64,000 nt of DNA from Escherichia coli (GTDB taxonomy: Bacteria; Pseudomonadota; Gammaproteobacteria; Enterobacterales; Enterobacteriaceae), in the NCBI RefSeq assembly GCF_013122565.1, contig NZ_CP053258.1. The stretch is one strand, 5' to 3'. Under the pieces are notes generated by a model. It did no database searches. It was not told the DNA's origin and saw nothing but the letters and a program-made list of their open reading frames with translations. Of this stretch, positions 2,235 through 61,816 are shown piece by piece. Numbering within the stretch: position 1 is the stretch's first letter; each line of letters begins with the position of its first letter. Made by a program: the position numbers and the translations under genes.

Positions 2235-2461
2235 GCAATAGTGCTAGCCGTTCGTTTTCACACTCCGCCCTATAAGTCGGATGAATGGAATAAAATGCAT
2301 ATCTGATTGCGTGAAAGTGAAAAAGAAAAAAGCAGGAAATGTCTGCAATTATTGATACCGAACGACAGTTCCCCTCCAGAATCACAGTAAATAAAAATGC
2401 ATATATTTTGACTTTAAATTCAAATAAACCGTTTGCGCTGACAAAATATTGCATCAAATGC

Positions 2462-2489
2462 TTGCACCGCTTCTGACGATGAGTATAAT
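2462..2489 (+). promoter_or_regulatory. Sigma70 promoter of pyrLBI (TTGCAC -35 at 2462-2467, TATAAT -10 at 2484-2489, 16 bp spacer)
   Basis: Consensus -10 and near-consensus -35 read directly, about 25 bp upstream of pyrL. Confidence 0.6.
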
Positions 2490-2514
2490 GCCGGACAATT
2501 TGCCGGGAGGATGT

Positions 2515-2649
2515 ATGGTTCAGTGTGTTCGACATTTTGTCTTACCGCGTCTGAAAAAAGACGCTGGCCTGCCGTTTTTCTTCCCGTTGATCACCCATTC
2601 CCAGCCCCTCAATCGAGGGGCTTTTTTTTGCCCAGGCGTCAGGAGATAA
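2515..2649 (+). CDS. pyrL: pyrBI operon leader peptide
   Basis: 44 aa MVQCVRHFVLPRLKKDAGLPFFFPLITHSQPLNRGAFFCPGVRR, ending 4 nt before pyrB and spanning the attenuator. Confidence 0.85.
   Translation: MVQCVRHFVLPRLKKDAGLPFFFPLITHSQPLNRGAFFCPGVRR
2604..2629 (+). terminator. pyrBI attenuator (rho-independent terminator inside pyrL)
   Basis: GCCCCTC-AATC-GAGGGGC hairpin followed by T8 at 2622-2629. Confidence 0.85.
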
Positions 2650-2652
2650 AAG

Positions 2653-3588
2653 ATGGCTAATCCGCTATATCAGAAACATATCATTTCCATAAACGACCTT
2701 AGTCGCGATGACCTTAATCTGGTGCTGGCGACAGCGGCGAAACTGAAAGCAAACCCGCAACCAGAGCTGTTGAAGCACAAAGTCATTGCCAGCTGTTTCT
2801 TCGAAGCCTCGACCCGTACCCGCCTCTCTTTCGAAACTTCCATGCACCGCCTGGGTGCCAGCGTGGTGGGCTTCTCCGACAGCGCCAATACATCACTGGG
2901 TAAAAAGGGCGAAACGCTGGCCGATACCATTTCGGTTATCAGCACTTACGTCGATGCGATAGTGATGCGTCATCCGCAGGAAGGTGCGGCGCGCCTGGCT
3001 ACCGAGTTTTCCGGCAATGTACCGGTACTGAATGCCGGTGATGGCTCCAACCAACATCCGACGCAAACCTTGCTGGACTTATTCACTATTCAGGAAACCC
3101 AAGGGCGTCTGGACAATCTCCACGTCGCAATGGTTGGTGACCTGAAATATGGCCGCACCGTTCACTCCCTGACTCAGGCGTTAGCGAAGTTCGACGGCAA
3201 CCGTTTTTACTTCATCGCGCCGGACGCGCTGGCAATGCCGCAATACATTCTGGATATGCTTGATGAAAAAGGGATCGCCTGGAGTCTGCACAGCTCTATT
3301 GAAGAAGTGATGGCGGAAGTAGACATCCTGTATATGACCCGCGTGCAAAAAGAGCGCCTGGACCCATCCGAATACGCCAACGTGAAAGCGCAGTTTGTTC
3401 TTCGCGCCAGCGATCTCCACAACGCCAAAGCCAATATGAAAGTGCTGCATCCGCTGCCGCGTGTTGATGAGATTGCGACGGATGTTGATAAAACGCCACA
3501 CGCCTGGTACTTCCAGCAGGCAGGCAACGGGATTTTCGCTCGCCAGGCGTTACTGGCACTGGTTCTGAATCGCGATCTGGTACTGTAA
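2653..3588 (+). CDS. pyrB: Aspartate carbamoyltransferase catalytic subunit
   Basis: 311 aa; ATCase motifs STRTR and HPLP; followed by pyrI. Confidence 0.97.
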
Positions 3589-3600
3589 GGGGAAATAGAG

Positions 3601-4062
3601 ATGACACACGATAATAAATTGCAGGTTGAAGCTATTAAACGCGGCACGGTAATTGACCATATCCCCGCCCAGATCGGTTTTAAGCTGTTGAGTCTGTTCA
3701 AGCTGACCGAAACGGATCAGCGCATCACCATTGGTCTGAACCTGCCTTCTGGCGAGATGGGCCGCAAAGATCTGATCAAAATCGAAAATACCTTTTTGAG
3801 TGAAGATCAGGTAGATCAACTGGCATTGTATGCGCCGCAAGCCACGGTTAACCGTATCGACAACTATGAAGTGGTGGGTAAATCGCGCCCCAGTCTGCCG
3901 GAGCGCATCGACAATGTGCTGGTCTGCCCGAACAGCAACTGTATCAGCCATGCCGAACCGGTTTCTTCCAGCTTTGCCGTGCGAAAACGCGCCAATGATA
4001 TCGCGCTCAAATGCAAATACTGTGAAAAAGAGTTTTCCCATAATGTGGTGCTGGCCAATTAA
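3601..4062 (+). CDS. pyrI: Aspartate carbamoyltransferase regulatory subunit
   Basis: 153 aa; C-terminal zinc-binding cysteines (CPNSNC...CKYCEK). Confidence 0.97.
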
Positions 4063-7423: not shown

Positions 7424-7563
7424 AAGGAGTCCCTCCGCACTGTCTGAAACAGTACAGAAATGTCTTCAGGCGTGGCGAAGCCTTACCTGAAGGTAATAAA
7501 GCTGAGCAGGGACGTTAAAACGTCACGGCCTTACGCATCCGGTAACGCCGTGAAAAGACGGGC
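7424..7563 (-). promoter_or_regulatory. mgtA 5' leader (Mg2+-responsive leader RNA region between mgtL and mgtA)
   Basis: 140 nt untranslated segment between mgtL stop and mgtA start; role from established knowledge of the mgtA leader. Confidence 0.6.
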
Positions 7564-7617
7564 TTACCGGAAAAGTTTTAATCTCCGTCGAGGGAGAGGC
7601 GTGGGATCAGGTTCCAT
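7564..7617 (-). CDS. mgtL: mgtA leader peptide (proline-rich)
   Basis: Reverse complement of 7564-7617 translates as [17 protein letters not shown]. Confidence 0.85.
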
Positions 7618-7710
7618 ATAACCTCCGGTAAGTGAAAAAAGCGCCGCAAATAATAAGGAGAATCCAATAATATTCGTAGCATCTATGGCGATATAATACC
7701 TGCTGGCAAC

Positions 7711-24640: not shown

Positions 24641-24745
24641 GTAGGCATGATAAGACGCGGTAAGCGTCGCATCAGGCTTCAGTGCACCATCGCCGGATGC
24701 GGCGCGAGCGCCTTATCCGGCCTACGAATCGGCATCAGGCATAGC
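24641..24745. repeat. REP/BIME cluster
   Basis: GCCTGATGCGACGCTTACCGCGTCTTATCATGCCTAC-type and GCCGGATAAGGCGCTCGCGCCGCATCCGGC units. Confidence 0.8.
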
Positions 24746-27773: not shown

Positions 27774-33325
<5,552 letters not shown>

Positions 33326-34172: not shown

Positions 34173-34275
34173 ATGCCGGATGCGGCGTAAACGCCTTAAC
34201 AGGCCTACAAAATCGTCCAAATTCAATATATTGTGGGGACTGCGTAGGCCTGATCGGCATAGCGCATCGGGCAGT
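34173..34275. repeat. REP/BIME cluster
   Basis: GCCGGATGCGGCGTAAACGCCTTA... unit plus GTAGGCCTGATCGGCATAGCGCATCGGGC unit; spacer CAAATTCAATATATTG shared with the 46086 cluster. Confidence 0.8.
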
Positions 34276-34449
34276 TTTGCATTTATCAGCAGCCTGAATT
34301 TTAACCCTCTGGCGGCTTTACAGTACCTTACGCTATACTAGCCACTGAAAATGCCGGTTCACTTTCTTCGAATCGGCTTTCAATGTGTATTTCACACAAA
34401 TTAATCAACTTCCCCTTCCGAGGATCTGGCCTGAAAGGTCGGATAAGAT

Positions 34450-38893: not shown

Positions 38894-39082
38894 TTCTCCA
38901 CCTCGTCTCTGTGAGCGGTGTTAACTTATTGTTTTACTTATACCCTATCGTTAATGAATGCGCCAACTGTGATAGTGTCATCATTTTCAAAGCGTAAAAT
39001 TGTGGCATTCTTCACTGTTCTATAAGTAAGACGTTTATTCTCCCTTTTCTTTCGTATTCCCGATGATAAAAGGATGTCCCTG

Positions 39083-61094: not shown

Positions 61095-61508
<414 letters not shown>

Positions 61509-61816
61509 TTATTCAGCCTCCTGTCTGGGTCAGCCGAATCCCGGGGAGGCAAGGAACGTGTTAAAGGTCGGCTGAAAAATGACGCGTTATAGTACTGACA
61601 TACCCCGCTAAACTCAAGGGCAGAGCCGAAATAAATCTCCCCTTTCGCAAATAACCTCTAAACCGCTGATTTGGAGTTCATCACACTTCATCATGGTGTT
61701 TTTTCGAACAACTGCATCAGAAATGGTCACCATCAACTTCTTTATCATTGATTAAAATTAAATCAGAAGATCATCACAGAGGAGAGCACACAAAGTCAGC
61801 CGTCGAGGAGGTATCT

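Follow-up and report, generated by a model that had tools for sequence, protein, structure and literature searches.

Around the region considered, the + strand of the window (the whole stretch of 64,000 nucleotides of Escherichia coli DNA analysed here) carries the genes bdcA, yjgH (1839-2234), pyrL, pyrB, pyrI and ridA, and the other strand carries mgtA. The order yjgH-pyrL-pyrB-pyrI-ridA, with mgtA opposite, is shared with E. coli K-12 and with a RefSeq strain of 100% identity. An A+T-rich spacer of 280 nt separates yjgH from a short ORF annotated in RefSeq as pyrL (2515-2649), which is followed by pyrB (2653-3588), the regulated gene, encoding the catalytic chain of aspartate carbamoyltransferase, and by pyrI (3601-4062), encoding its regulatory chain. 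The 2235-2700 region, with annotated pyrL and pyrB, is found in 5424 of the 5426 complete E. coli genomes.

The earlier note had described positions 2440-2652 as the pyrBI attenuation unit, made of a promoter, the pyrL leader peptide and an intrinsic terminator. The protein families PF08052 and NF007587, the identity to K-12 and the RefSeq annotation all agree with this description, and we regard it as almost certain that 2440-2652 corresponds to the control region of the E. coli pyrLBI operon, in which UTP-sensitive initiation is combined with attenuation. From 2467 to 2700, all 234 bases compared in the alignment are identical to K-12 MG1655, and the sole difference from K-12 within 2440-2652 is A2466 (G in K-12), inside the -35 hexamer; 12 more substitutions lie between 2244 and 2416, in the non-conserved upstream spacer. 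As one base only separates the region from K-12, the identification is correct but ordinary: the control mechanism of pyrLBI has long been known, and the sequence matches that of K-12, on which the mechanism was worked out. The start site, the reiterative transcription, the ribosome-dependent readthrough and the PurR occupancy and repression considered below are taken from the K-12 literature, and K-12 experiments are the basis on which UTP dependence, pausing and readthrough would hold for the present copy.

The pyrLBI leader is a textbook example of regulation that needs no specialised regulatory protein: the UTP level is read by RNA polymerase itself, first through slippage at the start site and then through a pause ahead of an attenuator, which a ribosome following closely can disable. 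The present locus brings nothing new on this mechanism, and the cross-species comparison contributes detail; the only item with some potential is a conserved PurR-type operator, whose position upstream of the promoter is constant throughout Enterobacterales. For this comparison, a PyrB scan of species-representative genomes gave 80 Enterobacterales loci, ranging from Escherichia to Yersinia, Serratia, Pantoea and Rahnella. Loci were anchored on their own terminators and then aligned, the alignment comprising 81 sequences.

The promoter and the start of transcription

The -10 hexamer TATAAT (2484-2489) is a perfect consensus, as had been claimed. The -35 hexamer of the pyrLBI promoter (P2), TTGCAC at 2462-2467, lies at a spacing of 16 nt and agrees with the consensus TTGACA at 3/6 positions, so that its earlier description as near-consensus was overstated. 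A consensus scanner requiring at least 4/6 matches per hexamer did not call the pyrLBI promoter. TTGCAC is the only hexamer at a workable spacing from TATAAT; an alternative -35 hexamer, TTGCAT (2449-2454), was rejected, as its spacer would be 29 nt. The K-12 hexamer is TTGCGC, and TTGCAC aligns with the TTGATC of most other Enterobacterales, of which the E. coli -35 hexamer is a weaker derivative. The exact 61-nt promoter haplotype of the window occurs in 1878 of the 5426 E. coli genomes, TTGCAC being a common natural variant of this weak hexamer. The single -35 difference from K-12 probably alters nothing essential.

Between the -10 hexamer and the start site lies a G+C-rich discriminator, GCCGGAC (2490-2496), followed by the transcription start, assigned to A2497, 7 nt after TATAAT, and by the initially transcribed AATTTG (2497-2502). 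The -10 hexamer and the start region are strongly conserved: AAT of the former and TTTGC of the latter are invariant in 81/81 aligned loci, and TAT of the -10 hexamer is at least 90% conserved. The initially transcribed region of pyrBI has been reported to be 5'-AATTTG, with a regulation of about 7-fold (PMC7039003, PMC6524683): at high UTP, the polymerase slips on the three T and releases AAUUUn transcripts, productive initiation being about 7-fold lower (PMC7039003, PMC6524683, PMC6245113). By the sequence criterion of PMC6524683, the AATTTG at 2497-2502 is a site of reiterative transcription. In addition, pyrBI is under stringent (ppGpp) control (cited in PMC6524683 and PMC6245113), in which the GCCGGAC discriminator probably takes part.

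The pyrL leader and its RNA signals

The pyrL ORF starts at ATG 2515, 4 nt after its Shine-Dalgarno sequence GGGAGG (2505-2510), and comprises 44 codons, the length previously given, plus a TAA stop codon (2647-2649) located 3 nt upstream of the pyrB ATG; the pyrB Shine-Dalgarno sequence AGGAG (2641-2645) lies within the last pyrL codons. Its product, MVQCVRHFVLPRLKKDAGLPFFFPLITHSQPLNRGAFFCPGVRR, matches the Pfam family PF08052 (PyrBI_leader) along its full length (positions 1-44 of 44) at 117.1 bits (cut-off 25), as well as the NCBIfam equivalog NF007587 (pyr operon leader peptide) at 120.1 bits (cut-off 61), and the comparison with K-12 that the earlier note had proposed shows pyrL to be identical to that of MG1655. 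Among the 81 loci, GGAG and the pyrL ATG are invariant (81/81), and CAGGAG, which contains the pyrB Shine-Dalgarno sequence, is conserved. Two other ORFs, both without RefSeq annotation, were set aside as chance ORFs: one at 2511-2660 (49 aa), lacking Shine-Dalgarno spacing, and an antisense one at 2203-2535 (110 aa).

Three RNA signals lie within pyrL. The first is an upstream (pause) hairpin at 2545-2567 in the predicted fold, with the core GCGUCU / GAAAAA / AGACGC at 2547-2564. The second is the U-rich tract UUUUUCUUCCCGUU (2575-2588), corresponding to the UTP-sensitive pause region, which begins 8-11 nt past this hairpin. The third is the attenuator, a terminator hairpin of 8 bp with a 4-nt loop (AGCCCCUC / AAUC / GAGGGGCU; 2603-2622, pyrL codons 30-36) followed by a T8 tract (2622-2629), the hairpin and T8 together being located within pyrL codons 30-39. 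As the pyrB ATG is at 2653, the claim of a GC hairpin plus T8 ending 24 nt before pyrB holds when positions are subtracted, with 23 bases in between. When folding was checked, as had also been proposed, the terminator hairpin formed at a predicted -15.9 kcal/mol, against a mean of -6.75 in shuffled sequences (z = -4.36; 0/200 shuffles as good); the refuting outcome named in the earlier note did not occur. When the leader is folded in full, the hairpin is again present in both the minimum-energy and the centroid structure, and it is the top terminator-like site between 1800 and 4700.

The earlier note had presented this attenuator as the classic UTP-sensitive one. It was right on the mechanism and incomplete on the elements, as it left out the AATTTG start region, the upstream hairpin and the U-rich tract, the last two of which make the attenuator UTP-sensitive. 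UTP-sensitive pausing and attenuation have been described (PMC7818426, PMC4824070), and from the literature we infer a pausing role for the hairpin at 2545-2567. In K-12, as far as Roland et al. (1988) is cited in PMC5021804 and PMC4824070, readthrough rises at low UTP and needs translation of the leader. Furthermore, when the ribosome is uncoupled, the pyrL terminator cuts reporter expression about 18-fold, coupling being needed to suppress the terminator (PMC5021804).

Two further structures were considered and dropped. A long-range helix between the pyrL Shine-Dalgarno/AUG region (2504-2519) and the U-tract (2571-2586) appears in the minimum-energy fold; it was not adopted, because 92.3% of its cells are paired versus 91.8% in shuffles, which gives no support beyond each side's own conservation. 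A small GACA..UGUC hairpin at about 2532-2542 is unconserved outside the core Enterobacteriaceae, according to a check that was off by one base.

Taken by itself, the hairpin with its T8 tract might be a mere constitutive terminator, insulating pyrB from yjgH, with pyrB transcribed from its own promoter. The hairpin is indeed a strong generic intrinsic terminator, with several unrelated sub-threshold matches to terminator-bearing small RNAs in Rfam. However, yjgH ends (2234) 370 nt upstream, and just 23 nt lie between T8 and the pyrB ATG, too short a distance to hold a separate pyrB promoter. Moreover, the ORF in which the terminator sits is translated, and the 81 loci conserve its start codon, its Shine-Dalgarno sequence and its extension into the hairpin; the arrangement is constant whatever gene lies upstream. 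We consequently give this explanation next to no probability and keep the hairpin and T8 as an attenuator.

The attenuator might also be of the type known for amino-acid operons (trp, his, leu), in which a ribosome stalling at regulatory codons of the leader peptide sets a switch between antiterminator and terminator. As in these operons, the leader combines a short ORF with an upstream hairpin and a terminator, and the Rfam Trp_leader family gives a weak match, which is driven by the terminator and remains far below threshold (19.7 bits, cut-off 41). No other Rfam leader family matches; Rfam has no family for the pyrBI leader, and the sub-threshold matches are all terminator-driven. A search for the PyrR-binding RNA motif of the PyrR-dependent pyr attenuators of Bacillus type also found none, either in 2235-2760 at E-values up to 10 or in the whole window at the gathering threshold. 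Against a trp-type switch, pyrL lacks any series of codons for one amino acid by which charged tRNA could be sensed, the fold contains no alternative pairing with the 5' arm of the terminator, and conservation between the hairpins concerns a U-rich tract rather than codons. In addition, the pyrL ORF passes through the terminator, as in the published mechanism (PMC5021804), so that the ribosome blocks the terminator directly. An amino-acid-type attenuator is therefore extremely unlikely, and the UTP-sensitive one is retained.

The comparison across Enterobacterales shows how constant the leader is. The upstream hairpin is found in nearly every locus, with 28 distinct stem sequences among the 81 loci (for example GCGCCU/AGGCGC, GCACCU/GGGUGC, CACCUG/CAGGUG and CGUCGUCU/AGACGACG). 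The U-rich tract lies 8-12 nt past this hairpin in most loci and reads GUUUUUCUUYCCG in most, and GCCCCUY-loop-RAGGGGC followed by T7-T9 is present in all 81 loci. A covariance model of the hairpin-to-terminator segment, built from 18 sequences, has a single match in the 64-kb window (2539-2632, 107.5 bits) and detects 80/80 loci at E < 1e-5.

In the alignment produced with this model, 93.7% of cells are standard pairs and 11/17 pairs show compensatory changes, counts that lean towards the structure of the model because the alignment was fitted to it. The covariation values were reached by 0/500 shuffles, and controls with shifted partners were 35-58% paired. Among 74 distinct sequences, compensatory changes affect 6/7 core pairs of the upstream hairpin and 4/9 pairs of the terminator hairpin, for which 97% of cells are paired. 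The variety of stem sequences (28 stems) is independent of structure-guided fitting. RNAalifold applied to a plain MAFFT alignment of 75 leaders gave 4 pairs only and zero covariation; loop-length differences put the stems out of register in such an alignment, which is why the covariance-model alignment was used instead.

Starting from the aligned ATG, leader ORFs are mostly 29-56 codons long (with two longer exceptions), and in 79/81 sequences they end within the terminator hairpin or past it; in the other two the stop codon lies at the foot of the hairpin, which a terminating ribosome would still cover. Beyond the hairpin, the peptides of the 81 loci fall into three unrelated C-terminal classes: 33-34 residues with a stop in the hairpin loop (Salmonella, Citrobacter, Klebsiella, Enterobacter), 44-45 residues ending in ...FFCPGVRR (E. 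coli) and 48 residues ending in ...SGDNHG, the last overlapping the start of pyrB. The class is set by single-base changes and by the length of the T run. For example, the E. coli and Salmonella types are separated by one base of the terminator loop, AATCGA versus AATTGA: as AATCGA contains no TGA, E. coli pyrL reads on to 44 codons.

These data also bear on whether the pyrL peptide itself matters, through a function of its own or through nascent-chain arrest, with the RNA features being secondary. The N-terminal two-thirds of the peptide (MVQCVRH.VLPRLK.DAGLPFFFPL) are well conserved in Enterobacteriaceae, enough for a Pfam family. Yet the conserved segments coincide with the hairpin (PRLKKDAG) and with the U-tract (LPFFFPL), and the C-terminal part exists in the three unrelated classes just described. 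Furthermore, the peptide is almost wholly divergent in Yersinia, Serratia, Rahnella and Pantoea, where hairpin, U-tract and terminator are retained. As the RNA signals are kept while the peptide diverges, selection acts on these signals and on the travel of the ribosome towards the terminator, in keeping with the published mechanism, and an importance of the peptide itself is considered very unlikely. RNA and DNA signals, rather than the peptide, are what selection maintains at pyrL.

A candidate PurR operator upstream of the promoter

A PurR-type operator, absent from the first description, lies just upstream of position 2440, at which that description began. This candidate, at 2423-2438, is a 16-bp palindrome with a central CG (left half AATAAACC, right half GTTTGCGC) that resembles ACGNAAACGTTTGCNT; its centre is at -66.5 from the transcription start, outside 2440-2652. 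With a matrix derived from the 28 PurR sites of PMC3159470, it scores 13.85 bits, which ranks 2 among 127,970 window positions, with no other site between 2235 and 2700 exceeding 5 bits. This score is within the range of the training sites (11.8 to 25.0) and below their median (20.1); in a leave-one-out evaluation, 5 of the 28 real sites scored lower. Compared with the purL and purHD operators, the candidate agrees at 13 of 16 positions, and its right half is that of purHD.

By per-column information in 79 non-redundant Enterobacterales sequences, the core AAnCGnTTnC equals the -10 hexamer and the TTG of the -35 hexamer in conservation, and its flanks are unconserved. In 77 of the 81 loci, the best match to the PurR matrix is found at -58.5 to -71.5, whatever the upstream gene. 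In Klebsiella, Raoultella and Pluralibacter the copies score 20-22 bits, and one of them has exactly the sequence of the E. coli purR operator, AGGTAAACGTTTGCCT. The left half of the E. coli copy is degenerate (AATA, not ACGN). Klebsiella and Raoultella have a near-perfect site, and that of E. coli is half-decayed.

A PurR ChIP-chip peak at pyrL-pyrB-pyrI, together with PurR- and adenine-dependent repression of all three genes, has been published for K-12 (Cho et al. 2011, PMC3159470), and the table of that paper gives no motif for the pyrLBI peak. After correction for a coordinate offset of 1977 bases between genome versions, verified with the purHD site, the published peak corresponds to window positions 2462-2598. 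The candidate site is 24 bp beyond the edge of the peak, which is close given 50-nt probes spaced one per 25 bp. PurR sites usually lie between the -35 and -10 hexamers (PMC3159470), and a centre at -66.5 departs from this usual position.

Alternatively, the palindrome might be an operator for another LacI-family protein or a conserved promoter-upstream element. Its invariant core AAnCGnTT is common to many operators of the LacI/GalR family, its left half is poor in E. coli, and -66.5 is unusual for PurR repression. Against this stand the published PurR occupancy and PurR-dependent repression at pyrLBI (PMC3159470), the fact that 2423-2438 is the sole PurR-like site in 2235-2700, and the high-scoring copies of Klebsiella, Raoultella and Pluralibacter, including the one with the purR operator sequence. 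We therefore hold a non-PurR element to be rather unlikely, while granting it real weight.

The match and its conservation suggest that 2423-2438 is a PurR binding site. A broader proposal, which we put forward tentatively as a possibility rather than as an expectation, is that the conserved palindrome is the operator behind the ChIP peak published without a motif, and that purine control is ancestral across Enterobacterales and exerted from an unusual upstream position. If this were true, aspartate carbamoyltransferase would be subject to purine control on top of the two UTP-sensing steps, and 2423-2438 may locate the binding site that PMC3159470 left without a motif.

Proposed control of pyrBI and comparison with known systems

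Transposed from K-12 to the present coordinates, the mechanism would make aspartate carbamoyltransferase synthesis follow the UTP pool in two steps, without a pyrimidine-sensing repressor. At initiation, RNA polymerase would start at A2497 and, after AAUUU, could slip on the T3 tract. High UTP would then favour repeated addition of U and release of AAUUUn, so that fewer polymerases would escape into the operon. Those that escape would first make the RNA of the hairpin (2545-2567) and next that of the U-rich tract (2575-2588). At low UTP, the polymerase would pause at this tract, and the ribosome coming from the pyrL ATG (2515) would catch up and stand on codons 30-36 while the terminator stem (2603-2622) emerges. 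As the hairpin cannot form when these codons are covered, transcription would read through into pyrB and pyrI. At high UTP, by contrast, there would be no pause, and the polymerase would outrun the ribosome to the hairpin and T8 and terminate 23 nt before pyrB. A third, purine input is likely, hypoxanthine-bound PurR probably binding to the operator-like palindrome at 2423-2438.

The closest known system is the pyrBI (pyrLBI) attenuator of K-12 itself, described, according to the citations in PMC5021804 and PMC7818426, by Turnbough, Hicks and Donahue (1983) and by Roland, Liu and Turnbough (1988). The locus and gene order are the same, and the difference lies in the -35 hexamer (TTGCGC in K-12, TTGCAC here). 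At the level of initiation, the AATTTG start, the T3 run and the G+C-rich stretch between -10 and +1 place the present promoter with the UTP-sensitive reiterative promoters pyrBI, codBA, upp and carAB P1. Start-site switching, which is used at codBA and upp, is not known to occur at pyrBI.

From promoter core and start region through hairpin and U-tract to terminator, the pyrBI leaders of Salmonella and Citrobacter are built like that of E. coli, but their leader ORF comprises 33 codons, with a TGA stop codon in the terminator loop (AATTGA), instead of 44. In the rph-pyrE operon of E. coli, the ribosome coupled to the polymerase at the pyrE attenuator is the one finishing the upstream rph gene, rather than one translating a dedicated leader peptide. 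This attenuator is described as following the same logic of UTP-sensitive pausing and attenuation (PMC7818426). Finally, the PurR operators of the E. coli purine regulon (PMC3159470, Table 1) are 16-bp palindromes with a central CG, like the candidate at 2423-2438, from which they differ in that the left half of the pyrLBI site is degenerate and its centre, at -66.5, does not overlap the -35 to -10 region.

Gene content upstream of pyrL

The genes found upstream of pyrL are not the same in all E. coli strains. Some 11% of E. coli genomes, that of strain SCU-115 among them, have bdcR-bdcA-yjgH replaced by an arginine deiminase cluster, which lies directly 5' of pyrL and comprises arcA-arcC-argF-yfcC together with an argR-like gene (positions 1-6018 of L083, a compared locus). 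Salmonella and Citrobacter seem to carry the same cluster 5' of pyrL. As homology between the window and the genomes carrying the cluster restarts at ~2408, TTGACTTTAAATTCAAAT (2408-2425) looks like a relic of the final codons of the argR-like gene of this cluster. The counterpart of TTGACTTTAAATTCAAAT in other genomes contains an ARG-box-like palindrome (TGAAT-N4-ATTCA).

PurR-like palindrome

A conserved palindrome of the LacI family (PurR-like) is located at 2423-2438, centred at -66.5 from the pyrLBI transcription start, and is found at the same placement in 77 of the 81 Enterobacterales loci. A published PurR ChIP peak, to which no motif was assigned, adjoins this palindrome (PMC3159470). 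When the window was scanned with the PurR matrix, only one site outscored the pyrL site, namely AGGTCACCGTTGGCGT (31806-31821, plus strand), which reaches 14.6 bits.

Leader pairing and unusual leaders

In the minimum-energy fold, the Shine-Dalgarno sequence and AUG of pyrL (2504-2519) pair with the U-rich pause tract (2571-2586) through 8 + 5 bp. Among the 75 leaders compared, 92% of cells retain the potential for this pairing; shuffles score equally, and each side of the pairing has other reasons to be conserved.

Several related genomes exhibit unusual leaders. In one of Pluralibacter gergoviae (L066) and Phytobacter massiliensis (L048), the leader ORF continues in frame into pyrB without a stop, while in the other it runs for 95 codons, out of frame, across the pyrB start. 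These odd ORFs may have arisen because the T run truly differs in length, or they may be due to sequencing errors in homopolymers. In Yersinia aldovae (L079) and Y. artesiana (L080), ~160 additional bases separate the attenuator from pyrB, an insert which we take to resemble an ERIC-type intergenic repeat.

Other predicted structured RNAs in the window

Further Rfam matches in the window were taken at the gathering threshold. These are an RpsF leader (61488-61572, minus strand, 110 bits), the ES239 sRNA (38960-39082, minus strand, 157 bits), STnc450 (34331-34388, plus strand, 77 bits), ES036 (34209-34251, plus strand, just over threshold at 37.7 bits) and naRNA4 (24644-24722, minus strand, 70 bits). 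Finally, Rfam places a Magnesium-II riboswitch, or Mg-responsive leader, upstream of mgtA (7517-7632, minus strand, 125.8 bits), and mgtL is annotated at the position of this leader in a related genome.
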